In this document: one piece after another, positions 6,973-28,147 of the stretch
Numbering within the stretch: position 1 is the stretch's first letter
How the letters are laid out: each line of letters opens with the position of its first letter
Source: Hyphomicrobiales bacterium
GTDB taxonomy: Bacteria > Pseudomonadota > Alphaproteobacteria > Rhizobiales > Xanthobacteraceae
Direction of reading: 5' to 3'
DNA: 64,000 bases
Assembly (NCBI GenBank): GCA_009377695.1
Contig: WHTP01000002.1
Coordinates: 37,473-101,472 of the forward strand
Notes under the pieces: model-generated
Told to the model about the DNA's origin: nothing
Databases searched by the model: none
What the model saw: the letters and a program-made list of their open reading frames with translations, nothing else
Program-made: the position numbers and the translations under genes

Positions 6973-7740
6973 TCAAGCCCCGCTCGGGCTGGTCCGGCGT
7001 GCGTAGATATCGCCTGAATTCGCCGCCATCGGCAGCGCGGCGAGCCAATTGGCGATGCCCTGCGCATCCTGCCATTGCGAATGGACAAGCGCCTGGCTCT
7101 CGCCGAGTGCGGCGTTGAAGAACAGAAACCCAAGCGCCGCGCAACGCTCTATGCCTTCCTCGGCCAGTTCGCGCTGGATGGTCGTGAATTCGAACGACAG
7201 GGTGGGCACGGGCCGCGTCAGCCCGTTGAGCACCTCGACCTCAAATCCTTCGACGTCGAGCTTGATGAAGGAGGGCAGGCCCTGCCGATCGATCAGGTCA
7301 TCCAGCGTCGTGACCGGCACGGCCACGGTCTTGGTCCAGTGCTGGCCTTCCCATCCGGGTGCGCCGCGGGCGGCCTTGATGAAGGCATCGGACGCGCTCG
7401 AGACAGTCGGGTTATCGAGATTGACTTTGAGGTCGACCGATCCAGCAGCGCGTCCGACCGCCAGTGCTTCGACGACGACCAGGCGGTCGCGGCCGTAGAG
7501 GAGCTTCAGCGTGCGCGCCAGCGCCGGCTGCGGCTCGACGGCGACCACCCGTGCCCCGAGCCGCCGAAACGAGGCGATCCGGTCGCCGACATGGGCGCCG
7601 ATATCGAACACGAGATCGTTCGGCCGAACGAACTGCCGATAGAGGCGATCCATGTCGCCGCGCCGCGCGCCACGGCCGTAATAGATGCCGAGCGAGCGCA
7701 CGATGCCACGCCACCTCCGCCACGTCTCGATGAGCCTCAC
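6973..7740 (-). CDS. FkbM-family methyltransferase
   Basis: ...VFDIGAHVGDRIASFRRLGARVVAVEPQP...FIKLDVEGFEVEVLNG... GTG 7740 overlaps the opgH stop (GTGA). The rest of track ORF 6973..8718 is a shadow frame of opgH. Confidence 0.8.
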   Translation of the reverse strand: MRLIETWRRWRGIVRSLGIYYGRGARRGDMDRLYRQFVRPNDLVFDIGAHVGDRIASFRRLGARVVAVEPQPALARTLKLLYGRDRLVVVEALAVGRAAGSVDLKVNLDNPTVSSASDAFIKAARGAPGWEGQHWTKTVAVPVTTLDDLIDRQGLPSFIKLDVEGFEVEVLNGLTRPVPTLSFEFTTIQRELAEEGIERCAALGFLFFNAALGESQALVHSQWQDAQGIANWLAALPMAANSGDIYARRTSPSGA

Positions 7741-9524
7741 GCGCGCGGTCCGGCGGCGAGCTTGACCGCGGGCAGGCCGAGTGCCGCCATCTCCCGTGGA
7801 GGCGCGGTTTCCTCCGGCAAGCGTCCGAGCCCGATCCGGACCATGGCGGGGCCGAGCGCCCGCGACGCGGTGATGACCGCAAGGGGGATCGACAGCAACG
7901 GACCGCCAGCGACGAACAGCGCGTAGGGGATCGCGCTCGGCACCGTCAGCGCCAACAGGCCAAGCGTGGAGGCTCCAAGCAGCGTGTGCGGCCATAACTG
8001 CCGTGCCGCCAGCGACCACGGCACCCTGTGGTCGTCGCGTACCTGCACGCCCCAGGCGATCGAACGGCCTGATAACAGCCGCGCGAGAAAAATCGTATGC
8101 GCGAACCACATGATCGGCGCCAGCATCAGGAAGAAGATCGTCTCGGTGATCACGCTCGCGACGAAGCGGACACCGCCGCCGAAGCTCTTCCGCAGCGCTG
8201 GCCGCATGAGCACGTCGATGACGGTCGCGATCTTCGGCGCAAACCACATCAGGAGGACGAGACAGAACACGGTGAAGCCAGGGACGGGGCGGATGAACAC
8301 CTGGCCGGAGCCCGCAATCGCGACCGCGAGGGAGCCGAACACCAGCAACCCGATCCAGCCTGGCGAGCCGAGAAACATCAGCAGCGCAAACGCGAGTTGA
8401 TAGCGACTCACCGGTTTGAGCCCTGGCATCACCAGGAAATGCCAATACTGCATGTTGCCTTGGCACCAGCGAAGGTCGCGCTGGATGAACTCGGTCAGCG
8501 TCGGCGGGTTCTGCTCGAAGCTGGCGCCTTCCTCCGGCAGCACGCGCACCTCGTAACCGGCGCGCCGCATCAGCACGGCCTCGACCTGGTCGTGGCTGAG
8601 CACGAACCCCTCGATCAGCGCACCCTTGCCAAGCACCGGCAGGTGGCAATGCATCATGAAAGGAGCGATGCGGATGAGCGCGTTGTGGCCCCAATAGGGC
8701 CCGCAGTCGCCCTGCCACCAGGCGCTGCCGATGGTGTAGGAACGCATGCCGAGCCGCATGCCGAACTGGAAGACGCGCGCGAACGCGCTGGTCGACGGCA
8801 TGCCGACGACCAGGCTTTGCAGGATGCCGAGCCGCGGCGTCGCCTGCATCACGCGTACGAGGCGGAGCACGGCGTCGGCGGTCATGAGACTGTCGGCATC
8901 GAGTACCAAGGCGAAATCGTGCTGGTCGCCCCAGCGGTCGCAGAAGTCACGGATGTTGCCAGCCTTGAAACCGGTGTTGATCTCGCGCCGCCGATACGTG
9001 ATCGGGATATGGCGGCGCCAGATGTTGGCGAACTCGGCAAAGTGCCGGCTCTCGATCGCGGCATGCGCGAGATCGCCGGTGTCGCTCAGCACATAGATAT
9101 GAAACTGCTCCGCGACGCCGTGCTTCACCAGGCCGTCGATGATCGGTGCGATGTGGCGGATGACGCGTTCAGGTGGCTCGCTGCGGACGCAAACGAGGAC
9201 CGCGGTTGATGTCACGATCGGTTCGTGATCCGAGCCGCGGCCGGCCGCCGGTGTCACCGCCGCGACCGGATCGCGCGCAAAGCGCATGATGATCAGGCCG
9301 ATGGTCGCATTCCAGAATCCGATGACCAGCCATGGCAGTGTGAGGGCAAACAGCACGACCAGCAGCAAGTCGCCGGGGCTGAAGCCACCGACCGACAGCG
9401 CGTGCACCGACAGCCAGATCATTCCGGCCATGGTTAGTCCGACCAGCGTGAAAAAGAGAACACGCCGGCCGGTCGGCGGTGCGTCGATCACGAACTCGGG
9501 CGAGCGTTCCAGCATGGCTTTCAT
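7737..9524 (-). CDS. opgH: Glucans biosynthesis glucosyltransferase H (OpgH/MdoH)
   Basis: GT2 core: ...VLVCVRSEPPERV...YVLSDTGD...LVLDADSLM...QRDLRWCQGNMQ..., plus multiple TM segments. Start set at ATG 9524, because residues from 9596 are encoded by a palindromic repeat. 9515 or 9596 are also possible. Confidence 0.9.
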   Translation of the reverse strand: MKAMLERSPEFVIDAPPTGRRVLFFTLVGLTMAGMIWLSVHALSVGGFSPGDLLLVVLFALTLPWLVIGFWNATIGLIIMRFARDPVAAVTPAAGRGSDHEPIVTSTAVLVCVRSEPPERVIRHIAPIIDGLVKHGVAEQFHIYVLSDTGDLAHAAIESRHFAEFANIWRRHIPITYRRREINTGFKAGNIRDFCDRWGDQHDFALVLDADSLMTADAVLRLVRVMQATPRLGILQSLVVGMPSTSAFARVFQFGMRLGMRSYTIGSAWWQGDCGPYWGHNALIRIAPFMMHCHLPVLGKGALIEGFVLSHDQVEAVLMRRAGYEVRVLPEEGASFEQNPPTLTEFIQRDLRWCQGNMQYWHFLVMPGLKPVSRYQLAFALLMFLGSPGWIGLLVFGSLAVAIAGSGQVFIRPVPGFTVFCLVLLMWFAPKIATVIDVLMRPALRKSFGGGVRFVASVITETIFFLMLAPIMWFAHTIFLARLLSGRSIAWGVQVRDDHRVPWSLAARQLWPHTLLGASTLGLLALTVPSAIPYALFVAGGPLLSIPLAVITASRALGPAMVRIGLGRLPEETAPPREMAALGLPAVKLAAGPRA

Positions 9525-9556: not shown

Positions 9557-9613
9557 AGTGTCCCGATCCGAAGTTCGCAAACTCCTCGCGGCACATTCTG
9601 CTGCGAACTTCGG
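9557..9613. repeat. Palindromic repeat, family E (arms CCGAAGTTCGCA / TGCGAACTTCGG)
   Basis: Read directly. The left flank TAGTGTCCCGATCCGAAGTTCGCA resembles the element at 15128. Confidence 0.8.
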
Positions 9614-9643
9614 AAGCAAAAAGATGCTACCAACGTATTGATT

Positions 9644-9720
9644 CTAGTGCCCCTTTTGAACCCAAAGTTCGCAGACGAATGAGCAGCACGGGCTTGCAAA
9701 CTTTGGGTTCGGGGCACTAG
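9644..9720. repeat. Palindromic repeat, family E: CTAGTGCCCC..GAACCCAAAGTTCGCA-loop-TGCAAACTTTGGGTTC..GGGGCACTAG
   Basis: Read directly; 77-bp imperfect palindrome. Confidence 0.85.
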
Positions 9721-9740: not shown

Positions 9741-10706
9741 ATGACGTCGAAAGCACTCTGGTACGTCGCAAAGAAGCGAGCCGAACTGCGCGAGGAGCCG
9801 CCGCTCGCTGCGCCGGCTGCCGGAGAGCTGCGCGTGCGCGCGCGCTTCGGCGGCGTCAGTCGCGGGACCGAGCGGCTTGTTTTTGAGGGACGCGTGCCGG
9901 AAAGCGAATACAAGCGCATGCGCGCGCCGTTCATGGACGGAGCGTTCCCTCATCCCGTGAAATACGGCTATTCGGTCGTCGGAACGGTGCAGGATGGCCC
10001 CCGCGTCGGGCAAACCGTTTTTGTGCTGCACCCGCACCAGAGCGAGTTTGTCGTGCCCGATGCGGTAGCCGCAATCGTGCCCGACACCGTGCCGGCGCAG
10101 CGCGCGGTGCTCGCCGCCAATATGGAGACGGCGCTGAATGCGGTCTGGGACGGCGCACCCGCACCGGCCGACCGGGTCGCGATTGTGGGCGGCGGCGTGG
10201 TCGGGCTGCTGGTCGCGCGACTGTGTGCACGCATGCCGGGCACAAGCGTCACCGTGGTCGACGTGTCGCCTGGCCGGGCAGAGCTGGCGCGGGCGCTCGG
10301 CGCAGGCTTCGCGACGCCCGACGATGCGCCCGAGAACTGCGATGTGGTGTTCCACGCCAGCGCTAGCGGCGCCGGGCTCGCAACGGCGCTCCGAATTGCC
10401 GGCGAGGAAGCCGTCGTCATCGAATTGAGTTGGTACGGCAGCGGTGACGTCGCCGCACCGCTCGGGCAGGCGTTCCATAGCCAGCGGCTGCGGCTCATCT
10501 CTAGCCAGGTCGGCAAGGTCGCTGCATCCCACCGGCCGCGCTGGACGCATCAGCAACGGATGGCCGCCGCGCTGGCGCTGCTCGGCGATCCCGCGCTCGA
10601 TGCGCTCATCGCGCCGTCCTTTGAATTCGCGGAGCTGCCGGAACGGTTGCCGGGGCTCCTCGCAGTCGATGCAGACGCGCGTTGTCCGCTCATCCGCTAT
10701 CCTTAA
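9741..10706 (+). CDS. MDR-superfamily (zinc-type alcohol dehydrogenase-like) oxidoreductase
   Basis: GroES-like N-terminus (ELRVRARFGGVSRGTERLV) and Rossmann motif VAIVGGGVVGLLVARL. Confidence 0.8.
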   Translation: MTSKALWYVAKKRAELREEPPLAAPAAGELRVRARFGGVSRGTERLVFEGRVPESEYKRMRAPFMDGAFPHPVKYGYSVVGTVQDGPRVGQTVFVLHPHQSEFVVPDAVAAIVPDTVPAQRAVLAANMETALNAVWDGAPAPADRVAIVGGGVVGLLVARLCARMPGTSVTVVDVSPGRAELARALGAGFATPDDAPENCDVVFHASASGAGLATALRIAGEEAVVIELSWYGSGDVAAPLGQAFHSQRLRLISSQVGKVAASHRPRWTHQQRMAAALALLGDPALDALIAPSFEFAELPERLPGLLAVDADARCPLIRYP

Positions 10707-10727
10707 TTTGGCCAACGGAGGTGTTCC

Positions 10728-11129
10728 TTGTACGCGGTCGAAGTCTCGGACCAGATCATGATTGCCCATTCGTTCCGTGGCGCTGTGTTCGGTCCCGCGC
10801 AGGAGTTGCACGGCGCGACCTTTGTGGTGCGTGCCGCCTTCTTCTCCGACCGGCTCGACGAGAACGGCATTGTCGTCGATATCGGACGCGCGCATGACGT
10901 TCTTAAGGCAGCGCTGAAACCGCTCAACTACCGCAATCTCGACGACCTGCCGGAGTTCAAGGGCGTGAACACGACGACCGAATTCCTCACCAGATACGTC
11001 TACGACCTCTTGGCGGATGCAGCGCGCTCCGACGGCTTGGGCCGTCCGGGCAGCGAATTATCCTCGATCCGGGTCACGGTGGCGGAATCGCCAAATGCGC
11101 GAGCCTGGTACGAGGCCCCCCTGCGATGA
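10728..11129 (+). CDS. 6-pyruvoyl-tetrahydropterin synthase / QueD-like T-fold protein with a non-canonical active site
   Basis: IMIAHSFRG...ELHGATFVV aligns to the QueD segment AAHRL...C..LHGHSF. The catalytic Cys and one Zn-binding His are absent. Confidence 0.75.
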   Translation: MYAVEVSDQIMIAHSFRGAVFGPAQELHGATFVVRAAFFSDRLDENGIVVDIGRAHDVLKAALKPLNYRNLDDLPEFKGVNTTTEFLTRYVYDLLADAARSDGLGRPGSELSSIRVTVAESPNARAWYEAPLR

Positions 11130-12163
11130 AGCGGGTGGCGTTTGCGGTGCCTGGCGACCTCGCGACGCCGACCGGGGGCTATGTTTATGACCGGCGGATC
11201 GTCGCCGAACTGCCGAAATCCGGATGGCAGGTCGATGTCGTCGATATCGGCGCGAGCTTTCCGCGTGCCTCGGTCGCAGAGCGGGCGACCGCGCATCTGC
11301 AACTCGCCGCGCTGCCTCATGGCCGCTTGATCGTCGTCGACGGGCTTGCCTTCGGCGTGATGCCGCAGAGCGCCGAAGCGCTCAATCAGACGCACAGGCT
11401 GGTGGCGCTGGTTCATCATCCGCTCGCGCTTGAAACCGGCGTGCCGGAGTGGGAGGCGGCGCAATTCAGGGCCAGCGAGCGTCTCGCATTGTCATTCGTG
11501 CATCGCGTCATCACGACCAGCGCGACGACCGCGCGATTGCTGGTGCAGAATTTTGCGGTTCCGGAGGATAGGATCAGCATCGTGCGGCCGGGCAACGACC
11601 GCGTCCCGATCCCGGAGCGGTTCATCAGGAAGTCCGTCAATCTCCTGGCTGTGGGATCAATCGTGCCGCGCAAGGGCTATGACCTCTTGATTGCGGCGCT
11701 CGGCCAGATCCCGGACCTGCCGTGGCGGCTGGTGATTGCCGCCGATCCCGGCGCAGCGCGGGCGCTACAGGCGCAGATCGCCTCGCTGCGCCTCACGGGT
11801 CGCGTGGAACTGGCCGGCGTTGTGTCGGACGAGCGGCTGGCGGAGTTCTATGCGGACGCCGACCTGTTCGTACTGCCGTCGCGCTACGAAGGCTACGGCA
11901 TGGCCTATACCGAAGCGATTGCGCATGGATTGCCAGTCGTAGGCACAACCGCCGGTGCTATACCGGAAGCGGTCCCGCGTGACGCGGGCGTGCTCGTGCC
12001 GCCAGATAATGTCAGCGAGCTGACATTGACCTTGATGCGGCTGATCGGAAGTCCGGCCGATCGTACGCGCCTCAACGCCGGCGCCCGTGCCGCGGCAGCG
12101 GCGCTGCCCACCTGGGATGACGCCGGGCGGCAGTTCTCGCAAGCACTGGATCTGGTAGCATGA
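11126..12163 (+). CDS. GT4-type (GT-B) glycosyltransferase
   Basis: ...GGYVYDRRIV...LLAVGSIVPRKGYDLLI...DLFVLPSRYEGYGMAYTEAIAHGLPVVGT... ATGA overlap with the PTPS-like stop. Confidence 0.8.
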   Translation: MKRVAFAVPGDLATPTGGYVYDRRIVAELPKSGWQVDVVDIGASFPRASVAERATAHLQLAALPHGRLIVVDGLAFGVMPQSAEALNQTHRLVALVHHPLALETGVPEWEAAQFRASERLALSFVHRVITTSATTARLLVQNFAVPEDRISIVRPGNDRVPIPERFIRKSVNLLAVGSIVPRKGYDLLIAALGQIPDLPWRLVIAADPGAARALQAQIASLRLTGRVELAGVVSDERLAEFYADADLFVLPSRYEGYGMAYTEAIAHGLPVVGTTAGAIPEAVPRDAGVLVPPDNVSELTLTLMRLIGSPADRTRLNAGARAAAAALPTWDDAGRQFSQALDLVA

Positions 12164-12969
12164 GTGTTTTTTCGGCTGGTTGGCTAGCGCTGCGCGAACC
12201 GTATGATCTTGCGGCGCGCAATACGACCGTCCTCGACGCCGTGCTTGCGGCCTTCCGCGGGCAAGCGTCGATCTCGATCGTGGATCTTGCCTGCGGCACC
12301 GGCTCGACGTTGCGGGCCATCAGCGGACGATTGCCGGCGCGACAGACCTGGCGCCTGGTCGACAACGATCTCGGACTGCTGACCGTGGCAGGGACGCTTG
12401 GGCAGCCGCCGGATATCACTGTTACCGCGCGTGCGGTCGATCTCGTTCGCGATCTCGAATTGGCGCTCGATGGACCGATCGATCTGATCACGATGTCGGC
12501 GATGCTCGATCTCGTGTCGGAGGATTGGCTGGAGCGCCTCATGATCGAAGCAGCGGCGCGTAGGCTGCCGATCTATGCGGCGCTCAGCTATGACGGCCGC
12601 GTGTCGTTCGATCCGCCCGCTGCATTCGACGCCGATATCGTCGATGCGGTCAATCGCCATCAGCAGACCGACAAGGGATTTGGTCTCGCACTCGGACCCG
12701 ATGCGGTTCGATACGCTGCGGAGATCGCCGAACGCGTCGGCTACTCGTTCGTCGACGGGCCATCCGACTGGGTCTTCGGCAAGGCCGACTCGGCGATCCA
12801 GCAGGATGTCCTGCGCGGCTTCGCCCGTGCCGCCGGCGACCTTCGCGAGCTCGCGGACGTACGCACCGCGGATTGGCTGACGCGCCGCCTGGACATGGTC
12901 GAGGCCGGCGCATCAAGCATGCGCATCGGTCACATTGATTTTTTTGCGATGCCGATGGCGATCCGCTGA
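12160..12969 (+). CDS. Class I SAM-dependent methyltransferase
   Basis: Motif I IVDLACGTGS. ATGA overlap with the glycosyltransferase stop. Confidence 0.7.
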   Translation: MSVFSAGWLALREPYDLAARNTTVLDAVLAAFRGQASISIVDLACGTGSTLRAISGRLPARQTWRLVDNDLGLLTVAGTLGQPPDITVTARAVDLVRDLELALDGPIDLITMSAMLDLVSEDWLERLMIEAAARRLPIYAALSYDGRVSFDPPAAFDADIVDAVNRHQQTDKGFGLALGPDAVRYAAEIAERVGYSFVDGPSDWVFGKADSAIQQDVLRGFARAAGDLRELADVRTADWLTRRLDMVEAGASSMRIGHIDFFAMPMAIR

Positions 12970-13763
12970 GCGGACAGATCGCAATCGAGCAGCACCTCGT
13001 CGCCGAGATGGTGGACGCGCATCGGCGCCCTGACCGCCTCGTCGACCCGCTCGATCGGCGCCAGGTTCACGCTCGCCGGGCCGGCGCCGATGATCATCGG
13101 CGCGATCACGACATGCAGCCGGTCGAGGCAGCCGGCCGCCAAAAATCGCGAGACCGTGTTCGAACCGCCTTCGATCAGGATGCGGCGAAAGCCGCGCTGC
13201 GCAAGCGCCGCGAGAACGGCGTCTGGCGCAAGCTGCCCATCTGCGGCGGCAAGGCGGACCACCTCGATACTGGCAGGGAGATCGAGCATCGTGTCCATTT
13301 TGGTAACGACCAGCCGGCGCACTCCGTCGTCCGCCAGGAGGAGCGCGGTTGGTGCCAGCCGGCCGCTCGGATCGAGCACGACACGGGCGGGGCTCGGGCC
13401 CGCAACGCGGCGAACGGTCAGTTGCGGATCGTCGGCGAGCGCAGTGCCGACGCCCACCACGACAGCATCGACCAGCGCACGCAGGCGATGCAGATGCGCG
13501 AGACCTTCGGTCCCGTTGATGTAGTGCGAATGTCCGCTTGCGGTCGCGATGCGGGCGTCGATCGATTGTCCGCATTGCGCGACGACCACCATGTCGTCGA
13601 CCGTGCCACGGCGCAACGGACCGAATACGTCTTCCCACGGTGCAGGCAACAAAAAATCCGTCTCCCGAAGCATCCGAGGAACTAGGTGCCACGTACTAGG
13701 GTTATCTTCTTTGGCCGTGTCGAAGGCCTCCTGGATCCGAGTTGGTGTTGAGCCGGTCGCCAT
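12930..13763 (-). CDS. RibD C-terminal-domain-type pyrimidine reductase (no deaminase domain)
   Basis: ...VVVAQCGQSIDARIATASGHSHYINGTEGLAHLHRLRALVDAVVVGVGTALADDPQLTVR...ILIEGGSNT... Start set at ATG 13763 (MATGSTP...). Its 3' end overlaps the methyltransferase 3' end by 40 nt (convergent). Confidence 0.75.
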   Translation of the reverse strand: MATGSTPTRIQEAFDTAKEDNPSTWHLVPRMLRETDFLLPAPWEDVFGPLRRGTVDDMVVVAQCGQSIDARIATASGHSHYINGTEGLAHLHRLRALVDAVVVGVGTALADDPQLTVRRVAGPSPARVVLDPSGRLAPTALLLADDGVRRLVVTKMDTMLDLPASIEVVRLAAADGQLAPDAVLAALAQRGFRRILIEGGSNTVSRFLAAGCLDRLHVVIAPMIIGAGPASVNLAPIERVDEAVRAPMRVHHLGDEVLLDCDLSAQRIAIGIAKKSM

Positions 13764-13868
13764 GATGTCGTGATATTTGGAGAACGAGATCGTGAAAACG
13801 CCCGTTTTGGCGTCGATTATTGCGAATATCCGCTTAGCCGCGGACACAGTCGGGGCTGGAGATCGTCC

Positions 13869-15008
13869 GTGATCGAGGGTACCAGTGCTGCATCTGCCGC
13901 TCCCTTTGGACCGGCGGATCATATCGCCGTTGAGCGCGCCTTGGCGGAATTTCGCTCAGGGCGGCCGGTTGTCATCGAGTCCCATTCCGGTTCGGTCGCC
14001 GCCTTGCCCATCGACGGGATAACCGATGCGCGGCTGGCGGCGTTCCGGCAGCTTTGCGCGCCAGCCGAGTTACACGTGGTCATCACGGCAAGCCGTGCGC
14101 GAGCGCTTGGACGCGATGCCAGGGAGCCGGTCGGTCTTGCTTTCGCGGACGGCGGTAGCGCAGCGGCGCTCCTGTCGCTGGTTGTCGATGTTCATGTCGG
14201 GCCGTCCGTCGATGTCGTGAACGCCGGCGCCAATGCGTTGGCGGCGATCGAACTCGCGAAGCTCGCGCATCGATTGCCCGCGCTGCTGGTCGCCGAGGTG
14301 ACGATGAATGCGCCCGATGTCGGTGCGCTCATGCGCGTCGGCGCCGATTCGGTCCTGCAGTTCCGGCGGATGGCCGTCGATTCGCTTGCAGTCGCGGCGG
14401 AAGCCGAGATTCCGCTTAATGGCGCACTGTCAACCCGCTTCGTAATTTTTCGCGATGCGATTGGCGGCAGCTCAACGGCGGTGATCGTAGGCGAGCCGGA
14501 TTGTTCAGGTCCGGTGCCGTTGCGCCTGCACTCGGCCTGCCTGACCGGCGACGTGTTCGGCTCGCGGCGTTGCGATTGCGGCGATCAGCTTCGCATGTCC
14601 TTGCGCAGGCTGGATGACGAAGGCGGCGGCATCATCCTCTATCTCGAGCAGGAGGGCCGCGGCCTCGGGCTCGCAAACAAGATGCGGGCCTATAGGTTGC
14701 AGGATGACGGGCTTGACACGCTCGACGCGAACACCATGCTCGGCTTCGACGACGACGAGCGTGATTACGGTGTCGCGGTGAGAATGCTGCAGATCCTCGG
14801 GTGCACGCGCGTGACGTTAATGACCAACAACCCGGCCAAGCTCGATTGGCTGACCAGGGCGGGAATCGAGGTGTGCGGACGCATTCCGCTGCACGGTCCG
14901 GTCAATGCCGACAATCGCCGCTATCTGACAGCCAAGGCGATGCGCGCCGGGCACAAACTTGATAATTTGATGATGGAGCCGGTCAACAGCAGGACACCTG
15001 CTGAATGA
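13869..15008 (+). CDS. ribA: GTP cyclohydrolase II with an extra N-terminal domain of about 170 aa
   Basis: C-terminal half: LRLHSACLTGDVFGSRRCDCGDQL...ILYLEQEGRGLGLANKMRAYRLQD...MTNNPAK (canonical GCH II). Start is tentative: GTG 13869 after GGAGA. The track ORF starts at 13770. Confidence 0.8.
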   Translation: MIEGTSAASAAPFGPADHIAVERALAEFRSGRPVVIESHSGSVAALPIDGITDARLAAFRQLCAPAELHVVITASRARALGRDAREPVGLAFADGGSAAALLSLVVDVHVGPSVDVVNAGANALAAIELAKLAHRLPALLVAEVTMNAPDVGALMRVGADSVLQFRRMAVDSLAVAAEAEIPLNGALSTRFVIFRDAIGGSSTAVIVGEPDCSGPVPLRLHSACLTGDVFGSRRCDCGDQLRMSLRRLDDEGGGIILYLEQEGRGLGLANKMRAYRLQDDGLDTLDANTMLGFDDDERDYGVAVRMLQILGCTRVTLMTNNPAKLDWLTRAGIEVCGRIPLHGPVNADNRRYLTAKAMRAGHKLDNLMMEPVNSRTPAE

Positions 15009-15036
15009 TTTTGCGGAGTGATTTTGAGAGCGGGCG

Positions 15037-15114
15037 CTCGTGTGGCGGTTCAGAAGTCCGCACTATTTTCGCGGCGAGTGCGAATTGCGGACTTCTGAAC
15101 CTAAGCCACACGAG
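15037..15114. repeat. Palindromic repeat, family E (CTCGTGTGGC GGTTCAGAAGTCCGCA-loop-TGCGGACTTCTGAACC..GCCACACGAG)
   Basis: Read directly. Confidence 0.85.
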
Positions 15115-15127
15115 ACTCAATGAGTTG

Positions 15128-15202
15128 CTAGTGTCCTTCGATTCCGAAGTTCGTATAAGAGGCCGCCGCGCAATGGTACGAACTTCGGAATCGAGACACT
15201 AG
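15128..15202. repeat. Palindromic repeat, family E (CTAGTGTCC..GATTCCGAAGTTCGTA-loop-TACGAACTTCGGAATC..CACTAG)
   Basis: Read directly. Confidence 0.85.
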
Positions 15203-15217
15203 GCGGAGGGGGCATCA

Positions 15218-15763
15218 ATGAACGACATGACGGCGGCCGCGCCGGGTTACACGCCGACCGCGCGGGTGCTGCATTGGATCGTTGCCGCATTGGTGCTGCT
15301 GATGGTGCCGCTGGGCATCGTGATTGCCAATGAATGGGGCGGGCCGGCGCAGCAATTTCTCTACAACCTGCACAAATCGATCGGCGTGACGCTGATCCCG
15401 ATCGTCATCGTTCGGCTGCTCTATCGCCTGAGCCATCCAGCGCCGCCGCTGCCGAGCGACATCCCGGCGATCCAGCAATTTGCCGCGCATGCGTCGCACT
15501 GGTCGCTCTATGCGCTGATCCTGATACAGCCGATCGTCGGTTACATTATGACGTCGGCCTATCCGGCGCCGGTCCCATTCTTCGGCTTGTTCAACCTGCC
15601 GGCGATCTGGCCGGAAAACCGCGCGCTCTCGGAGCAGCTTTCGGTCGTCCACTTGTATATTGGTCTTGCCATCGCGGTGATCGCGACCATCCACATTAGT
15701 GCAGCGCTGTTCCATCATTTCGTGCGCAAGGATCGTGTCCTCATGCGCATGATCACCGGTTAA
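15218..15763 (+). CDS. Cytochrome b561-family membrane protein
   Basis: RVLHWIVA...LHKSIG...HWSLYALI...HISAALFHHF: four TM segments with conserved His. Confidence 0.85.
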   Translation: MNDMTAAAPGYTPTARVLHWIVAALVLLMVPLGIVIANEWGGPAQQFLYNLHKSIGVTLIPIVIVRLLYRLSHPAPPLPSDIPAIQQFAAHASHWSLYALILIQPIVGYIMTSAYPAPVPFFGLFNLPAIWPENRALSEQLSVVHLYIGLAIAVIATIHISAALFHHFVRKDRVLMRMITG

Positions 15764-15774
15764 CGGCCCCCGCG

Positions 15775-16572
15775 ATGGCCGGTGCTCCGATGAGCCGCGT
15801 GCTGGGCGAACTGACGTTTCATGACGCGGCGCGCGCGATCAAGGAGACGTCGATCTTCTGCCTGCCACTCGGCGCCATCGAGCAGCACGGTCCGCATCTG
15901 CCGCTCAACACCGATGTCGTCGTTGCCGAAGGGCTGACCGGTCGCCTGCTTGCTCGCTGGGGCGATGCGTTTGACCTGTGGCAGCTTCCGACGCTCTCGA
16001 TCGGTCTCTCGCGCGAGCATGATTGGGCTGCCGGGACGCTGAGCCTGTCGATCGATGGCTTCACCCGTCACATGCGCGACCTTGCTGGCACGCTCGTGCG
16101 TTCATTGCCGGCGCGCAACCTTGCGATCGTCAACGGTCATGGCGGCAACCGCGGCATCCTCGAAAATCTGCTGCATGAATTGCGTGGTGACTTCGGGCTG
16201 AACGCCGTGGTGCTGCATCCCTTCGATCTGGCCGGTGCCGATCCGGCCATCGCCGATGTTCACGCCGCGAAGGGCGAGACCTCGGTCATGCTCGCGCTCG
16301 CGCCCGGTCTGGTGCGGCGGGATTGCATCGGTTCGGGTCGGCCGCCCGACCTGAAGGCGGTGCAGGCATTGATTTTCGAGCGCGGCACCACCTGGGGATG
16401 GCGCAGCGACGATGCGCGGCTCGCCCGCGACGGCATCATCGGCGACGCGAGCGGTGCGACAGCGGAGTACGGCTCGGCGCTGCTCGATCGCATGGTGGCA
16501 GCGGCGGGCGGTGTCTTTGCGCAACTTCTGGAAAACCAGACGATCATGCAGGCGCACGATCGCGCGCGCTAA
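15775..16572 (+). CDS. Creatininase-family amidohydrolase
   Basis: LPLGAIEQHGPHLPLNTD...VNGHGGN motifs. Confidence 0.8.
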   Translation: MAGAPMSRVLGELTFHDAARAIKETSIFCLPLGAIEQHGPHLPLNTDVVVAEGLTGRLLARWGDAFDLWQLPTLSIGLSREHDWAAGTLSLSIDGFTRHMRDLAGTLVRSLPARNLAIVNGHGGNRGILENLLHELRGDFGLNAVVLHPFDLAGADPAIADVHAAKGETSVMLALAPGLVRRDCIGSGRPPDLKAVQALIFERGTTWGWRSDDARLARDGIIGDASGATAEYGSALLDRMVAAAGGVFAQLLENQTIMQAHDRAR

Positions 16573-17912
16573 TACTTTGCCTGGTGGCGGCCTGCCAGGA
16601 CGACGACAGCGCCGGTCAGGCTCGCCAGCACGCACCAGTAGCCGTAGCGGAAATCGGCGGCCACGCCGAACGGGAAGAACGTCAGAACGTAAACAATGCC
16701 CGAGCCGCTGACTCCGAGGACGAAGGCGCCTGACGGTGTCGTGCGCAAGGGCCAGGCGAGCGCGCAGATGACGATTGCAATGGCGAGCCAGACGCCGAGG
16801 CTGAGCAGCCAGAGCGGCTGCAGCACGTTCTGCACCGCGACCATCGCCATGAAGAGCGGATTCTGTGCGTGAATCTGTCGTGACGGCTCGTCGAGGTCGA
16901 GCACCGGGATCAGCAGGACATCCCGACTGAGGAACGCCCGCATGACGCTCGCGCGATGCTTCAGATAGGCGAGGGGATTCGACAGAACGGCATTGCGCCA
17001 GGCTTCAACGAGGCGGGGGGTGCCGAAGATCGTGTCGTCTTTTCGTTCAAGCCGCTGCATCACGAAATCGCACGGCGCGATATGCCAGTAATAGTCCCAG
17101 CGGTCCGGGTTATAGCACTGGCTGGTGAACATCATCGCGGTCTGCTCAGGCGTGAACGTCACCGGAAACTCGTTCACGCCCGAATAATAAGAGATGCCGC
17201 CGAGGTCGAAGACGAACACCGAGTGCAGCGGGTTCGATCGCTCGGCGTTGAGCACGGTGTAATAGACCGCATGGACCAGTGCGTAGCCGGCAAAAATACC
17301 GGGAATGAGAATGGCTGCGACCCGCTTCCAGTAGAACGCCGTGGGCCACATCACATAGGTAGCCAGCAGCGGCGCGGCGATGATGGCGTTCGGCCGCAAC
17401 AGCACGCCAAGGGCGACGAGGAGCATCGCCGTCGTCTGCGCCGGCCATCGAACGGCCGCCGGCCGGGACGCGGCCGCATAGGTCAGCGCTGCCGCGAACA
17501 GCCAGACGTCGGCGAACAGGATGTCGCGCCAGATCAGTCCGACGAAAAAGAACGCCGGCGGCGTGAACGCGAGCAGCATGGTGACAACGCCAAGCCATCC
17601 CGCCGTGCGCGCGACGGTGAAGGCGACAAGAGCGAAGGCGCCCCAGTAGAGCAGCAGCATCAGGAGGAACATGCTCATCGAGCCAGGTGCGATCGGATCG
17701 ATGACGTGCCAGAGCACCGACATGACCGGCGATTGCCAGTCGCCTAATGCGCCCAGGGTCGCCTTGTAGACCCACTGGGCGTCGACGCTCATGTAGCCGG
17801 GGTAGAACGCCGCGAGGCTGAGCGCGAGTCCGGCCGCGAGCAGCGCGACAATGGCGATCGACACGCCCCAAGAAGCGCTTCGGCAGGGGGCTGCTGGGTC
17901 CACTCGGTCCAT
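16569..17912 (-). CDS. Polytopic membrane protein, GT-C / PMT_2-like glycosyltransferase candidate
   Basis: About 10 hydrophobic segments. N-terminal loop motif YMSVDAQW...WQSP. Family call is tentative. Confidence 0.5.
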   Translation of the reverse strand: MDRVDPAAPCRSASWGVSIAIVALLAAGLALSLAAFYPGYMSVDAQWVYKATLGALGDWQSPVMSVLWHVIDPIAPGSMSMFLLMLLLYWGAFALVAFTVARTAGWLGVVTMLLAFTPPAFFFVGLIWRDILFADVWLFAAALTYAAASRPAAVRWPAQTTAMLLVALGVLLRPNAIIAAPLLATYVMWPTAFYWKRVAAILIPGIFAGYALVHAVYYTVLNAERSNPLHSVFVFDLGGISYYSGVNEFPVTFTPEQTAMMFTSQCYNPDRWDYYWHIAPCDFVMQRLERKDDTIFGTPRLVEAWRNAVLSNPLAYLKHRASVMRAFLSRDVLLIPVLDLDEPSRQIHAQNPLFMAMVAVQNVLQPLWLLSLGVWLAIAIVICALAWPLRTTPSGAFVLGVSGSGIVYVLTFFPFGVAADFRYGYWCVLASLTGAVVVLAGRHQAKY

Positions 17913-26224: not shown

Positions 26225-28147
26225 ATGCGAGTTTTGTTTGTTGCAAACGCGTACAACAGTCTTTGTCAGCGTATGCATGTTGAATTGCTCGATCGCGGTC
26301 ACGAGGTCTCCATCGAGCTCGCCACCAGCGAGCTTGCGATGGTCGAGGCGGTCGAGCTCTATCGGCCGGACCTCATCCTGGCGCCGATGCTGACCAGGCC
26401 GATCCCCGAACGGATCTGGCGCAATCACGTCTGCATCATCCTCCACCCCGGAATCCGGGGCGACCGCGGAGCCTCCTCGCTCGACTGGGCGATCGTCGAG
26501 GATCAGCGCGTGTGGGGGGTGACGGCGCTGCAGGCCGCCGCCGAGATGGATGCCGGCGACGTCTGGTCCGCGCACGAGTTTCTCATGCGGCCGGCCAGCA
26601 AGAGCAGCCTCTACCGCAACGAGATCATGGAGGCCGCCGTCAGGGCGCTGCTCGAAGCCGTCGAGCGGTTCGCGAGCGGGCGCAGCGAACCGGAGCCGCT
26701 CGACCACGGTCGATCCGACACGCGCGGTCGCTGGCACCCGCTGATGAAGCAGGCCGATCGCCGGATCGACTGGTCGGAATCGACGGCCACCATCGTCCGC
26801 AGGATCCGCGCGGGCGACAGTCGGCCGGGCACGCTCGATGCGATCGACGACACGCAATATTACCTCTACGGCGCCCATGCCGAGGACGCTCTGAAGGGCA
26901 GTCCGGGCGAGTTGCTCGCGCAGCGCGATGGCGCCATCTGTCGCGCGACCGGAGATGGCGCCGTATGGATCAGCCATCTGCGTCGGCAGGGCGGCGGCAT
27001 CAAGCTGCCGGCCGCATTGGCGCTCGGCGAGGCCGCGGCGGGCATTCCGGTCGCGGAGGCGGCCAGTGTGGCGGTTCAGAAGTTCGCCATCCCAAGCAGC
27101 CAGAGCGAGAGCGAACTTCGGATTCGGGACACTAGCGACGCTGCCGACCATCGGACGTTTCGGGAAATCTGGTACGAGGAGACCGACCATGTCGGCTATC
27201 TCCACTTCGATTTCTACAACGGCGCCATGAGCACCGATCAGTGCCGGAGACTGACCGATGCGGTGGGGACAGCGACGCAGCGCCCGACCCGCGTGCTGGT
27301 GCTGATGGGCGGCACTGATTTCTTCTCCAACGGCATCCACCTCAATGTGATTGAGGCAGCGCCCGATCCCGCCGATGAATCCTGGGCGAACATCAACGCG
27401 ATGAACGACCTGGTCCAATCGATCATCCTGACGAAGTCGCATCTCGTGGTTTCGGCCATGCAAGGCAACGCCGCCGCGGGCGGCGTGACGCTCGCCTTGG
27501 CGGCGGACGTCGTCTGGGCCCGCGAGGGCGTCGTGCTCAATCCGCACTACCGCCGGATGGGGCTCTACGGCTCCGAATACTGGACCTACCTGCTGCCGCG
27601 CCGCGTCGGCGCGAGGTGTGCACGTGAGCTGACCACCGCCTGCCTGCCTGTAGGGACGCGACGGGCCAAGAGGATCGGGCTCGTGGACGAGTATTTCGGC
27701 GCTCCCGTCACCGGTTTCGCACGCTGGGTTCGTATCCGGGCGGAGGAGCTTGCGCATGCACCCGATTGGCACGAGCGCCTCTCCGCCAAGGTGGCGGTGA
27801 GGATGGTGGAGCAGGCGATCAAGCCGCTCGAGCGCTACCGCCAGGAGGAATTGGCGCAGATGCGGACGAACTTCTACGGACCGGATCGCACCTATCACAT
27901 CATGCGACACAATTTCGTGCACAAGATCCAGCGCGGGCCGACGCCGTCCTACCTGGCGAAGCATCGCACCGTGTTCGCGGCCCCTGCCGGCCGCAAGAAC
28001 CCGATCGATCCCGCGGGCGTCCGCCTCTCCGCAAGCGATCGGGTCAACCCTCGCCTGTCGAAGCCGGCGGACGTGCCGATGGCCGATAATAGCAACAAAC
28101 CTCCGCCCCAGCGCCGCTCCCGCTTCCTCTCTCTGTTTCGCGGATGA
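26225..28147 (+). CDS. hypX: HypX/HoxX-like protein (N-terminal formyltransferase-like domain fused to a C-terminal crotonase/enoyl-CoA hydratase-like domain)
   Basis: N-terminus: MRVLFVANAYNSL...ILHPGIRGDRGASSLDWAI. C-terminus: ...VLVLMGGTDFFSNGIHLN...AMQGNAAAGGVTLALAADVVWA... This domain architecture is that of HoxX/HypX. Confidence 0.75.
   Translation: MRVLFVANAYNSLCQRMHVELLDRGHEVSIELATSELAMVEAVELYRPDLILAPMLTRPIPERIWRNHVCIILHPGIRGDRGASSLDWAIVEDQRVWGVTALQAAAEMDAGDVWSAHEFLMRPASKSSLYRNEIMEAAVRALLEAVERFASGRSEPEPLDHGRSDTRGRWHPLMKQADRRIDWSESTATIVRRIRAGDSRPGTLDAIDDTQYYLYGAHAEDALKGSPGELLAQRDGAICRATGDGAVWISHLRRQGGGIKLPAALALGEAAAGIPVAEAASVAVQKFAIPSSQSESELRIRDTSDAADHRTFREIWYEETDHVGYLHFDFYNGAMSTDQCRRLTDAVGTATQRPTRVLVLMGGTDFFSNGIHLNVIEAAPDPADESWANINAMNDLVQSIILTKSHLVVSAMQGNAAAGGVTLALAADVVWAREGVVLNPHYRRMGLYGSEYWTYLLPRRVGARCARELTTACLPVGTRRAKRIGLVDEYFGAPVTGFARWVRIRAEELAHAPDWHERLSAKVAVRMVEQAIKPLERYRQEELAQMRTNFYGPDRTYHIMRHNFVHKIQRGPTPSYLAKHRTVFAAPAGRKNPIDPAGVRLSASDRVNPRLSKPADVPMADNSNKPPPQRRSRFLSLFRG
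27065..27135. repeat. Family E palindromic repeat copy inside the HypX-like ORF
   Basis: GTGTGGCGGTTCAGAAGTTCGC matches the left arm at 15040-15061. GCGAACTTCGGATTCGGGACACTAG matches the right arm at 15178-15202. Confidence 0.8.

Follow-up and report, generated by a model that had tools for sequence, protein, structure and literature searches.

Membrane-enzyme partners recur with a proteobacterial form of the PTPS-IV/SCO6650-SCO6655 orphan gene module

PTPS-IV is a subfamily of T-fold proteins whose signature, FGPAQ, was defined in PMC5445326, and the same paper with its supplement reported independently, over 561 sequences, that PTPS-IV genes adjoin genes of the GTP cyclohydrolase II (GCH II; PF00925) and RibD_C (PF01872) families. 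The member from Streptomyces coelicolor, SCO6650, has a crystal structure (PDB 3D7J) that is labelled "uncharacterized." One review states that PTPS-IV acts in F420 synthesis, citing unpublished work (PMC5041015), and another gives the third S. coelicolor RibA homolog a role unrelated to flavin synthesis (PMC13151069). The literature, as far as it could be searched, yielded no paper on the product of the PTPS-IV cluster (a later solution is possible), and no characterized pathway matching the gene combination was found. The cluster described here lies in a window of 64,000 nucleotides (the whole stretch of Hyphomicrobiales DNA that was analyzed) and is identified by its sequence as the proteobacterial form of the orphan gene module SCO6650-SCO6655, built around the PTPS-IV T-fold protein. 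A preliminary description of the locus had rightly matched it to no known pathway but was mistaken in calling it undescribed, given the name under which it is already known, the crystal structure and the published association. What is new here is that a membrane-enzyme partner, of one of two kinds, recurs with the module.

The gene content, conservation, cross-phylum orthology and catalytic-residue state of the module are its established features. On the plus strand of the window, a dehydrogenase gene (DH, 9741-10706) is followed after a 21-nt gap by the PTPS-IV gene (10728-11129), a GT4 glycosyltransferase gene (11126-12163) and a gene for a class I SAM-dependent methyltransferase (MT, 12160-12969), with ATGA overlaps at 11126-11129 and 12160-12163. 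The MT gene converges with a 3' overlap of 40 nt on a minus-strand gene for a RibD_C-only pyrimidine reductase (12930-13763), which is in turn divergent from a plus-strand gene for a GCH II with an N-terminal extension (13869-15008). The preliminary description had claimed this gene order and these junctions, and all were found in the window. The convergent overlap is kept in relatives (L081, 40 nt; Agrobacterium tumefaciens pAt, 72 nt; Rhizobium SL42, 48 nt), and the same-strand operon of the module includes RibD in Thiodictyon and Palleronia.

PTPS-IV is encoded in at least 591 species-level genomes and falls into only 178 clusters at 50% identity, with 55% identity between phyla. The 80 loci analyzed were those most similar to the window, and their frequencies describe Alpha- and Betaproteobacteria rather than all carriers; presence counts are based on the 46 proteobacterial loci with full flanks. 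Conservation of the gene neighborhood, proposed earlier as a check on the locus, was borne out: DH, PTPS-IV, GT4 and MT were each present in 46/46 loci, RibD_C in 43/46 and GCH II in 39/46. Six genes are common to the window and Streptomyces, namely DH, PTPS-IV, GCH II, GT4, MT and a creatininase; the Streptomyces cluster has no RibD_C gene. Small-genome freshwater Polynucleobacter carries the module, as do the accessory plasmid pAt of A. tumefaciens and a 59-kb mobilizable Microbacterium plasmid. Because the same gene order recurs in relatives, the data support the view that the module is a genuine, widely conserved functional unit rather than a chance adjacency.

The DH belongs to the MDR superfamily, with weak ADH_zinc_N and BchC matches, and shares 55% identity with its Streptomyces ortholog along the entire length. 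Where the catalytic Cys and His-Glu would lie it reads SRGTE and KYGYS, and the family motifs are kept in 81 sequences; with the zinc ligands gone, the earlier designation as an MDR dehydrogenase stands for the fold and is refined to a non-zinc oxidoreductase. The PTPS-IV gene has a TTG start with GGAGG 8 nt upstream, and its product (PF01242, E=6e-22; PDB 3D7J, E=7.5e-37) is an SCO6650 ortholog with 55% identity and carries the FGPAQ signature, within a motif, AHSF[RK]G..FGPAQ..HGATF, that is present in 90/90 loci. Compared with PTPS/QueD, PTPS-IV has lost the zinc and cysteine chemistry, lacking both the third zinc histidine and the catalytic cysteine, but keeps the substrate-anchoring T-fold glutamate, Glu85, which is invariant. 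Its role may be binding or scaffolding rather than catalysis. The analogy drawn earlier with pathways that combine PTPS, a reductase and a pteridine glycosyltransferase is correspondingly weak, the more so as no GCH I gene is present in the cluster.

The GT4 enzyme has a GT-B fold assignment (Glycos_transf_1 and Glyco_trans_1_4) and 38% identity to its Streptomyces ortholog; among solved structures it is closest to MshA 7QSG (3e-23), the SPS-like 6KIH and PimB' 3OKA. It is fused to PTPS-IV in one case (P0481), and in Palleronia its gene is cotranscribed with an inositol-monophosphatase-family gene. The MT (Methyltransf_25, 28.1 bits) gave no NCBIfam match and no PDB relative, and shares 34% identity with the C-terminal portion of the 479-aa Streptomyces ortholog.

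The reductase (PF01872, E=1e-40) most likely starts at 13763, giving 277 aa (relatives, 269 aa), rather than at the longest-ORF start of 13922. In keeping with the reductase-only call of the preliminary description, Pfam shows no deaminase domain in it. Its best PDB matches are archaeal DAROPP reductases (6P8C, 7.5e-25; 2AZN, 2.8e-22), with bacterial RibD at about 1e-15, and Gln replaces the Lys of bacterial RibD in 72/73 cluster copies. By this residue the reductases are classed as a cluster-specific subfamily. The site is presumably a specificity position, as we take it from work on Lys151 of Bacillus subtilis RibG. The likeness to archaeal reductases of the non-deaminated substrate, together with the difference from the Lys-bearing bacterial RibD, supports assignment to the type acting on that substrate.

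For GCH II (PF00925, E=1e-51), the start is most likely 13869, not 13770, yielding 379 aa (relatives, 382 aa). From this start the Pfam domain begins at about residue 178, and an extension of ~170 to 175 residues (~170 had been claimed earlier) is genuine. NCBIfam already includes this long architecture, since its model NF006456 covers the protein from end to end. Pfam has no match for the extension, which hhalign aligns collinearly with RibB as a tentative match (P=0.0014). The enzyme is canonical, as had been described: it aligns with Escherichia coli RibA (2BZ0, 2e-47) and keeps the Cys triad and Tyr105, and its switch position is Tyr, as in 55/55 proteobacterial copies, with Met in Streptomyces (48% identity to that ortholog). 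GCH II is missing within the 10-kb flanks of 7/46 loci and also from the Methylosinus, Thiodictyon and Microbacterium regions. An Rfam scan at the locus gave no FMN riboswitch or other match, and no further rib genes were found among the window ORFs scanned. The lack of a deaminase domain and of an FMN riboswitch supports the conclusion that this GCH II and RibD-type combination is something other than a usual pair of riboflavin genes.

Upstream of DH and divergent from it is a minus-strand gene for an MdoH/OpgH-like family-2 membrane glucosyltransferase (7737-9515), which matches Glyco_trans_2_3 in Pfam and NCBIfam NF003958, "glucans biosynthesis glucosyltransferase MdoH" (517.8 bits; cutoff, 419). 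Its start at 9515 (MLERSP) was set by alignment to the L081 protein, the longest ORF reaching 9596. No solved sequence homolog was found for the protein, and the Methylosinus trichosporium OB3b copy is named mdoH by PGAP. The gene is present in 44/46 full-flank loci, its position unchanged. It is translationally coupled, by a GTGA start/stop overlap at 7737-7740, to a gene for a 255-aa FkbM-family methyltransferase with a GTG start (6973-7740, minus strand; Methyltransf_21, E=1e-17; TIGR01444, 88.9 bits; cutoff, 37.7), and in L081 and L082 the two are fused as one 848-aa protein. FkbM is present in 21/46 loci, and orthologs of 43 to 46% identity occur in the Rhizobium clusters with the second type of partner and in Palleronia. 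A glucan ABC exporter (NF010178, 813.9 bits; cutoff, 733) is found in 16/46 loci. In Streptomyces, Microbacterium, Agrobacterium and Rhizobium the partner is a CDP-alcohol phosphatidyltransferase accompanied by a flippase-like protein; Thiodictyon has the transferase without the flippase-like protein. These transferases share 39 to 53% mutual identity, and a sulfatase-family gene stands beside them in 3/3 Gram-negative cases. The two types exclude each other (OpgH-like, 72 loci; CDP-alcohol transferase, 5; both, 0), as expected of alternatives filling one role.

The reading preferred here, at a probability of roughly 0.45, is that the module glycosylates and methylates a ribityl-aminopyrimidine or pteridine made from GTP and sends it to the cell envelope via the membrane enzyme; we infer every chemical step after GCH II. 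Because its catalytic residues are intact, GCH II would convert GTP to 2,5-diamino-6-ribosylamino-4(3H)-pyrimidinone 5'-phosphate, an intermediate that a housekeeping enzyme could provide in loci without a cluster GCH II. In view of its similarity to archaeal reductases and its Gln, the deaminase-less RibD_C would then reduce the ribosyl to the ribityl group without prior deamination, retaining the 2-amino-4-oxo face. PTPS-IV, its glutamate anchoring the 2-amino-4-oxo-pyrimidine rings, and the DH would remodel this intermediate, possibly to a pteridine. The relatives of GT4 (MshA, SPS and PimB') and its phosphatase partner in Palleronia suggest that it glycosylates the polyol side chain while this is still phosphorylated, and one or two methyltransferases (MT and FkbM) would methylate the product. 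Finally, since the membrane-gene partnerships are strictly conserved and mutually exclusive, the membrane enzyme is proposed to take the product for envelope delivery: in the window the OpgH-like synthase, assisted in relatives by the glucan-type ABC exporter and by a membrane protein without family assignment, and in other lineages the CDP-alcohol phosphatidyltransferase and flippase-like protein, with the sulfatase-family transferase in Gram-negatives.

The preliminary description had favored soluble enzymes making a cytoplasmic glycosylated, methylated pterin- or diaminopyrimidine-type cofactor or metabolite, which would leave the membrane genes as unrelated neighbors or mere exporters. The conserved core four, RibD_C and GCH II are consistent with this, GT4 and MT would be enough for such a product, and in Palleronia the soluble genes come with those for a phosphatase and a kinase, and an (incomplete) gene table shows no membrane partner inside 8 kb; the OpgH-like gene is also absent from 2/46 loci. 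Its adjacency could stem from shared regulation or common inheritance rather than substrate hand-over. Nevertheless, a cytoplasmic end product appears less likely when a membrane transferase accompanies 44/46 proteobacterial loci and all five CDP-alcohol-type loci, across phyla, when the two types are exclusive, when FkbM is fused or coupled to the OpgH-like gene and when, in Polynucleobacter, the OpgH-like gene, the glucan ABC exporter and MT share one operon.

Less probable still is that two unrelated units adjoin, GCH II, RibD_C and the creatininase forming an alternative or housekeeping riboflavin branch with the archaeal step order, and the OpgH-like, DH, PTPS-IV, GT4 and MT genes an envelope glycan operon without a GTP-derived substrate. 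A canonical GCH II that some loci lack, and MdoH and glucan ABC scores above their cutoffs, would fit, as would BrbF, a creatininase-family AFRPP formamidase and true riboflavin enzyme in Rhizobiales (PMC9478397). Against this stand the RibD_C/MT convergent overlap in several genera, the presence of RibD_C in 43/46 loci and of RibD within the Thiodictyon and Palleronia operons, the missing deaminase and riboswitch, the Gln subfamily, the purine/pterin-anchoring Glu of the T-fold protein and the published family association; moreover, a housekeeping role is excluded for the copies carried by accessory plasmids. A polysaccharide connection, named earlier as grounds for abandoning a GTP-derived product, was indeed found in the OpgH-like partner, but it stands alongside the GTP link rather than in its place.

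Participation in deazaflavin (F420/FO) biosynthesis, with GCH II and RibD_C supplying the ribityl-pyrimidine precursor, is highly improbable. A ribitylamino-pyrimidine is indeed the starting point for F420, which Streptomyces makes, and the review remark based on unpublished work points the same way. However, no cofC, cofD, cofE, cofG, cofH or fbiC was present in the neighborhoods listed, F420 is without sugar and needs a deaminated uracil intermediate for which RibD_C has no deaminase partner, membrane partners have no place in its synthesis, and to our knowledge the module carriers Agrobacterium and Polynucleobacter are not F420 producers. Equally hard to credit is a strain-specific secondary-metabolite cluster, e.g., for a toxoflavin-like azapteridine or nucleoside antibiotic: methyltransferases also serve in toxoflavin pathways, which begin with GCH II and a homolog of RibD, and some module copies are plasmid-borne, but the module is highly conserved over its many species (including many Streptomyces proteins) and small Polynucleobacter genomes, its RibD homolog has no deaminase domain, and the annotated neighborhoods held no other toxoflavin-type genes and no consistently accompanying NRPS, PKS, resistance or regulator genes.

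Three accessory genes follow GCH II in the window. A cytochrome b561-family membrane heme protein (15218-15763, plus strand; PF01292, E=3e-28) is found in 21/46 loci at three different positions, in the A. tumefaciens pAt, Rhizobium SL42 and Thiodictyon clusters, and with both membrane-partner types; this recurrence suggests that the final molecule may be redox-active at the membrane. A creatininase-family amidohydrolase and candidate formamidase (15775-16572, plus strand; PF02633, E=5e-51) scores below the NCBIfam cutoffs for MftE, creatininase and ArfB and is 33% identical to the creatininase within the Streptomyces cluster; noted earlier as a possible seventh gene, it is present as described but optional in proteobacteria (19/46 loci). 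The third is a polytopic membrane protein (16569-17912, minus strand) with ~8 hydrophobic segments, of 431 aa from the annotated start. It has no Pfam or NCBIfam match, and an AlphaFold2 model (447 aa, pLDDT 87) gave no significant PDB fold match; of its 1750 homologs, every named one among those listed is "hypothetical." It occurs in 18/46 loci, to one side of the module or the other, and probably belongs to it; the boundary drawn in the preliminary description was therefore too tight, the upstream OpgH-like and FkbM genes belonging to the module as well.

Four tightly coupled genes on the + strand form the core operon: a non-zinc MDR oxidoreductase (DH, 9741-10706), a T-fold PTPS-family protein (10728-11129; TTG start, with a GGAGG ribosome-binding site in the 21-nt gap before it), a GT4 glycosyltransferase (11126-12163) and a class I SAM methyltransferase (MT, 12160-12969), the last two each joined to the preceding gene by an ATGA overlap. 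On the - strand, a 277-aa RibD_C-only reductase with a likely start at 13763 overlaps the MT gene by 40 nt at its 3' end, and divergent from it is a 379-aa GTP cyclohydrolase II (GCH II, + strand, likely start 13869); both starts were placed by comparison with relatives. Cytochrome b561 (15218-15763, +), a creatininase-family protein (15775-16572, +) and a polytopic membrane protein of 447 aa (16569-17912, -) follow. The gene layout given in the preliminary description was borne out by the ORF map, the family scans and direct reading of the junctions, and the genes matching PF00925 and PF01872 both lie within 3 kb of the T-fold gene in the window.

When one genome per species was scanned, the T-fold protein, a member of the PTPS-IV subfamily, was found to be encoded in at least 591 species; carriers of it or of the module include Bradyrhizobium, Xanthobacter, Azorhizobium, Methylosinus, Agrobacterium, Rhizobium, Polynucleobacter and Streptomyces. 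The best 80 of the loci came from Xanthobacteraceae, Bradyrhizobium, Pseudolabrys, Beijerinckiaceae, Methylocystis, Xanthobacter, Azorhizobium and Stappia and, within the Betaproteobacteria, from Polynucleobacter, Zwartia, Alcaligenaceae and Methylopumilus. Among 46 loci with full 10-kb flanks, DH, PTPS-IV, GT4 and MT were each present in 46/46, an MdoH/OpgH-like glucosyltransferase in 44, RibD_C in 43, GCH II in 39 (every time with RibD_C), cytochrome b561 and an FkbM methyltransferase in 21 each, the creatininase in 19, the 447-aa membrane protein in 18 and a glucan-type ABC exporter in 16, frequencies that hold for the part of the family represented by the 80 loci nearest to the window and not for all carriers. 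Conservation of the six-gene neighborhood, proposed earlier as a check, is borne out by these counts. The module, including genes annotated as "ribA" and "RibD family," is also found on accessory replicons, namely A. tumefaciens pAt and a Rhizobium megaplasmid, and further on M. trichosporium pOB3b1 and a 59-kb mobilizable Microbacterium plasmid. The closest syntenic relative of the window was L001, a locus in the metagenome-assembled genome MFD09267.bin.2.200, with 76 to 96% amino-acid identity over 13 genes.

The T-fold protein matched PF01242 (E=6.2e-22, 78.3 bits against a cutoff of 22.4) and carries an FGPAQ signature, reading SFRGAVFGPAQELHGATF in the window; the motif was found in 90/90 loci. 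Within COG0720, FGPAQ marks the PTPS-IV subfamily, whose genes adjoin PF00925 (mislabelled FolE2 there) and PF01872 (PMC5445326, citing Zallot 2016 for the signature). The closest solved structure was 3D7J (E=7.5e-37 over residues 1-130, 55% identity), a Streptomyces coelicolor protein deposited as "Uncharacterized protein SCO6650." The zinc apparatus of PTPS-I, PTPS-II, PTPS-III and QueD (CxxxHGH, CxxxxxHGH or ExxHGH) was absent across the 90 loci, with no Cys or Glu ahead of the HG motif and no catalytic Cys. The window protein reads LHGATF against LHGHSF in QueD, so that the third zinc His is replaced by Ala and the other two are kept, and it scored 35.5 bits with the QueD model TIGR03367 (cutoff, 89.25). 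PTPS-IV invariably retains the Glu with which T-fold enzymes anchor 2-amino-4-oxo-pyrimidine rings.

The sole statement on PTPS-IV in PMC5041015 is that it "is involved in the synthesis of F420 (unpublished)"; none of the neighborhoods examined contained cof or fbi genes. The third S. coelicolor RibA homolog was assigned "a completely new function unrelated to flavin biosynthesis" in a 2026 review (PMC13151069). A full-text literature search, with key primary papers outside its reach, found no report of the product of the cluster. Together, the FGPAQ motif, the identity with 3D7J and these reports on PTPS-IV make the cluster a recognized orphan rather than an unseen one. The preliminary description had proposed a candidate undescribed pathway, a view superseded by the SCO6650 structure and the neighborhood reported in PMC5445326. 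The cluster is a proteobacterial variant of that orphan, real and of interest and less novel than was first thought; what is new here is the extended boundary of the module and the hypothesis of an envelope function.

In the annotated plasmid records, the NCBI pipeline gives PTPS-IV the name "6-carboxytetrahydropterin synthase" and a GO term for queuosine, and calls the non-zinc DH a "zinc-binding alcohol dehydrogenase." Both names are at odds with the residue states and amount to systematic mis-annotation in hundreds of genomes. Tandem PTPS-IV-like domains, two or three per chain of 382 to 855 aa, occurred in the representatives P0363, P0364, P0366 and P0371. Two haptophyte algae, Emiliania huxleyi and Gephyrocapsa oceanica, contribute sequences to the P0364 cluster, and the family therefore reaches eukaryotes as a built-in pseudo-trimer. 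PTPS-IV and GT4 are fused in P0481, which lies on a 50-kb contig.

Six proteins of SCO6650-SCO6655 are orthologous to those of the window: DH and PTPS-IV at 55% identity, GCH II at 48%, GT4 at 38%, MT at 34% and the creatininase at 33%. The Streptomyces locus is ordered as a CDP-alcohol phosphatidyltransferase (-), DH, PTPS-IV, GT4 and an MT fusion (+), an LPG_synthase_TM protein (+), the creatininase (-) and GCH II (+). It thus shares with the window the DH-PTPS-IV-GT4-MT order, overlapping start and stop codons and a divergent membrane transferase upstream. It differs in lacking RibD_C, in a GCH II with Met as the switch residue and without the N-terminal extension (Tyr and an extension in the window), in an MT with a long low-complexity N terminus, and in its membrane partner, which is the CDP-alcohol phosphatidyltransferase with LPG_synthase_TM instead of an OpgH-like protein with FkbM.

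DH has an MDR fold without the catalytic zinc ligands and strongly conserved motifs, SRGTE, PVKYGY, LHPHQ and RAVLAANMETALNA. The nearest solved relatives of GT4 were MshA, a sucrose-phosphate-synthase-like enzyme and PimB', which glycosylate small phosphorylated acceptors or phosphoinositides; GT4 scored 58.8 bits with the MshA model (cutoff, 462.5). In Palleronia, GT4 is co-transcribed with an inositol-monophosphatase-family gene, and the pairing of a glycosyltransferase with a phosphatase occurs where the former acts on a phospho-polyol that is dephosphorylated later. A sequence search found no solved-structure relative of MT.

GCH II and RibD_C of the module are probably not housekeeping riboflavin synthesis genes. 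GCH II matched PF00925 at 175 bits and passed NF001591 (218.7 bits, cutoff 148), and it aligned with E. coli RibA (2BZ0) at 2e-47 with the zinc residues C54, C65 and C67 as well as Y105 conserved. The switch position is Tyr in the window and in 55/55 scorable proteobacterial copies, Met being found in the Streptomyces loci only (KLRAMALQ). Met at this position, as Spoonamore and colleagues are said to have found in 2006, halts the enzyme at the formylated product; with its Tyr, the window enzyme falls outside the SCO6655-type (Met), formylaminopyrimidine-forming group. The N-terminal extension of about 175 residues is real, and NF006456 covers the protein end to end, so the long architecture is already catalogued. 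The first 176 residues gave no Pfam match of any kind up to E≤10, and hence none to PF00926, the DHBP synthase domain of bifunctional RibBA. In hhalign, the extension was collinear over 136 columns with E. coli RibB (P=0.0014, probability 17%), with the acidic catalytic loop of RibB missing, and a single-sequence AlphaFold model reached a pLDDT of only 35. Tentatively, the extension may be a dead RibB domain.

The reductase contains RibD_C alone by Pfam, with no deaminase domain, and scored 105.6 bits with the bifunctional RibD model TIGR00326 (cutoff, 156.35). Its best solved relatives were 6P8C (7.5e-25) and 2AZN (2.8e-22), archaeal reductases of the non-deaminated substrate, with bacterial RibD at about 1e-15; with TIGR01508, the archaeal/fungal model for the non-deaminated substrate DAROPP, it scored 102.1 bits (cutoff, 186.45). 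The specificity position is Gln in 72/73 cluster reductases, including those of Agrobacterium and Microbacterium, against Asn in 6P8C and 2AZN and Lys in E. coli RibD. The Lys, Lys151 in B. subtilis RibG, is reported to select the deaminated substrate. No FMN riboswitch or any other Rfam element was found in the whole window, and none of the 30 other ORFs scanned in it belonged to riboflavin, folate or F420 families.

The creatininase matched PF02633 at 174 bits and scored 21.7 bits with the ArfB model NF033501 (cutoff, 180). Its family includes BrbF, the AFRPP formamidase of Rhizobiales, a creatininase-family enzyme having been shown to deformylate this formylated intermediate (PMC9478397). 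The idea that the creatininase tracks a Met-type GCH II in proteobacteria was rejected, all copies having Tyr whether the creatininase is present or not.

The module boundary in the preliminary description was drawn too tightly and left out an apparently obligatory membrane partner. Upstream of and divergent from DH is a gene for an OpgH-like, that is MdoH-like, membrane glucosyltransferase, which passed both NF003958 MdoH (517.8 bits against 419) and NF003962 (446.8 against 328). It is followed by an FkbM methyltransferase gene through a GTGA overlap at 7737-7740, and the two form a single fused protein of 848 aa in two related loci (L081 and L082). In Polynucleobacter, the OpgH-like gene, an ABC exporter and MT lie in one operon, and the exporter scored 813.9 bits with NF010178, a model for glucan ABC transporters (cutoff, 733). 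The same exporter, at 61 to 63% identity, is found near the module in many alphaproteobacterial loci, adjoining the 447-aa membrane protein. In relatives, a glucan ABC exporter lies upstream of FkbM; it is absent at that place in the window.

An alternative partner, a CDP-alcohol phosphatidyltransferase, was found in Streptomyces, Microbacterium, Agrobacterium, Rhizobium and the gammaproteobacterium Thiodictyon. These transferases are 39 to 53% identical to one another across phyla and usually lie beside a flippase-like LPG_synthase_TM protein. All three Gram-negative loci of this type encode a sulfatase-family protein (Agrobacterium, L088, 3205-4791; Rhizobium, L093, 1516-3141; Thiodictyon, L089, at ∼14650, in locus coordinates), which is absent from the actinobacterial versions; the head-group transferases OpgB, LtaS and EptA belong to the sulfatase family. 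Over 90 loci, the two partner types were mutually exclusive, with the OpgH-like protein in 72, the CDP-alcohol type in 5 and both in 0. FkbM is orthologous across the two types (43 to 46% identity) and is therefore part of the module and not of the glucan synthase. A b-type cytochrome likewise recurs with both. Sequence searches gave no useful relatives among solved structures for either the OpgH-like protein or the CDP-alcohol transferase.

The 447-aa membrane protein has 1,750 homologs and no Pfam domain, every named homolog listed being "hypothetical." Its AlphaFold model was of high confidence (pLDDT 87, pTM 0.89), and the best TM-scores were 0.29 to 0.34, to STT3, ALG3, AftD and FtsW. Assignment as a GT-C glycosyltransferase was not upheld, with no PDB match at E≤0.001. 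The protein may represent a new membrane-protein fold tied to the module.

Among known systems, riboflavin synthesis of the archaeal/fungal order, in which GCH II or GCH III with ArfB/BrbF is followed by a DAROPP reductase ahead of deamination, shares with the soluble part a GCH II with intact catalytic residues, a reductase (here one closest to the archaeal DAROPP enzymes) and a creatininase-family enzyme. The module lacks a deaminase, lumazine synthase, riboflavin synthase, a functional RibB and an FMN riboswitch, however, its reductase differs from the archaeal ones in having Gln rather than Asn at the specificity position and a TIGR01508 score below the cutoff, and it adds a T-fold protein, an MDR enzyme, GT4 and methyltransferases. 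The membrane part resembles the osmoregulated periplasmic and cyclic glucan systems (OpgH/MdoH, NdvA/ChvA and OpgB) in its MdoH-model GT2, glucan exporter and sulfatase-family genes. It differs in the length of the OpgH-like protein, ∼590 residues against 847 for E. coli OpgH, and in the coupling or fusion of the GT2 to FkbM and its linkage to GTP-derived chemistry, which we know of in no OPG system. No OpgG/MdoG partner appeared in the Pfam or PGAP listings of the neighborhoods examined, the window neighbor being FkbM.

The phospho-polyol glycoconjugate logic of mycothiol (MshA/MshA2), phosphatidylinositol mannoside (PIP synthase with PimA/B) and sucrose-phosphate (SPS/SPP) synthesis is echoed by the kinship of GT4, by the inositol-monophosphatase-family gene in Palleronia and by the CDP-alcohol transferases of five loci; the module differs in having no inositol genes, and the acceptor of GT4 is presumed to be a GTP-derived ribityl-phosphate compound. 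The pterin glycosides of cyanobacteria and Chlorobium are, like the proposed product, GTP-derived heterocycles that are glycosylated or methylated. They require GCH I and a catalytically competent PTPS, whereas the module has no GCH I and its PTPS-IV lacks the zinc/Cys apparatus. In toxoflavin synthesis, GCH II and a RibD homolog that includes a deaminase domain act first, and further dedicated enzymes are required; the RibD homolog of the module has no such domain, and no dedicated toxoflavin genes were found in the window or in the annotated neighborhoods of relatives. The module does not fit the mycofactocin system, in which an MftE-type creatininase goes with MftA, MftB and MftC: the creatininase scored 117.7 bits with the MftE model TIGR03964 (cutoff, 172), and no radical-SAM or precursor-peptide genes were present in the neighborhoods examined.

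From the observed gene content, conservation, orthology and residue states, we infer every chemical step of the following route. GCH II would open GTP, and its product would be reduced to the ribityl form with deamination skipped. PTPS-IV and the non-zinc MDR enzyme might then remodel the intermediate, ring closure to a pteridine being chemically plausible, after which GT4 would glycosylate the phosphorylated polyol chain and methylation would follow. That a glycosylated, methylated heterocycle derived from GTP is what the soluble enzymes produce has, in our estimate, a probability of about 0.65 to 0.7. The product could subsequently be passed to the membrane enzyme, with a glucan built on or around it for export; alternatively, it could be linked to a phospholipid, flipped and perhaps used as a head-group donor. 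This envelope-directed version of the pathway, suggested by the conserved, mutually exclusive membrane partners, falls a little short of even odds.

A bolder reading, which we consider improbable, is a new class of envelope molecule, in which a glycosylated and methylated head group made from GTP, either a ribityl-aminopyrimidine or a pteridine, is anchored covalently and acts as a redox partner of cytochrome b561. By one route, the head group would be joined to a phospholipid by the CDP-alcohol phosphatidyltransferase and the lipid flipped, a sulfatase-family enzyme possibly passing the head group onward in Gram-negatives; by the other, the OpgH-like synthase would make a periplasmic glucan to which it is attached. 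Together with cytochrome b561, the molecule would serve as a redox cofactor or shuttle in the membrane or periplasm.

For nearly twenty years SCO6650, whose structure dates from 2008, and SCO6655, a divergent GCH II described in 2006, have had no settled purpose, and PTPS-IV is a COG0720 subfamily without a published function that pipelines still label as a queuosine enzyme. The pairing with membrane partners makes the orphan pathway testable, through a search of lipid extracts and periplasmic-glucan fractions for a head group that derives from guanine and is fluorescent or redox-active. If confirmed, it would open a new branch in the chemistry of cofactors made from GTP and represent a new kind of envelope decoration, and it might bear on alternative riboflavin steps in Rhizobiales.

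Four related nested hairpins were detected at 9567-9614, 9644-9720, 15037-15114 and 15128-15202, with a core of AAGTYCGYA-loop-TRCGRACTT within CTAGTG...CACTAG outer arms, folding energies of -24 to -55 kcal/mol and z-scores of -4.3 to -8.9. They are the sole copies in 64 kb and all lie within the two intergenic gaps of the module; of the 90 loci, only L006 has them, in a different gap (9837-9967, between DH and PTPS-IV). An operator or riboswitch in the OpgH/DH divergent region was rejected, the palindrome there being one of these four hairpins and absent from relatives except L006, and the Rfam scan blank. The hairpins look like a REP/MITE-like family of mobile palindromes.

The right half of the window, from ∼30000 to 64000, is occupied by a prophage with an integrase (30014-31186, -), a DUF5131 protein, a YqaJ recombinase, an ERF single-strand annealing protein, an HTH regulator, a small terminase (53116-53724), a P22-like portal (55894-58176), a capsid protein (59467-60567) and an SU10 adaptor (61418-62113). 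No tRNA genes were found anywhere in the window, and the attachment site is therefore not a tRNA within it. At the left end, 1980-2837 weakly resembles the Caudovirus prohead serine protease family Peptidase_S78 (E=5e-6) and may be a second phage remnant. Finally, a 640-aa protein encoded at 26225-28147 (+) combines N- and C-terminal formyltransferase domains with an enoyl-CoA hydratase/isomerase domain, an unusual fusion.
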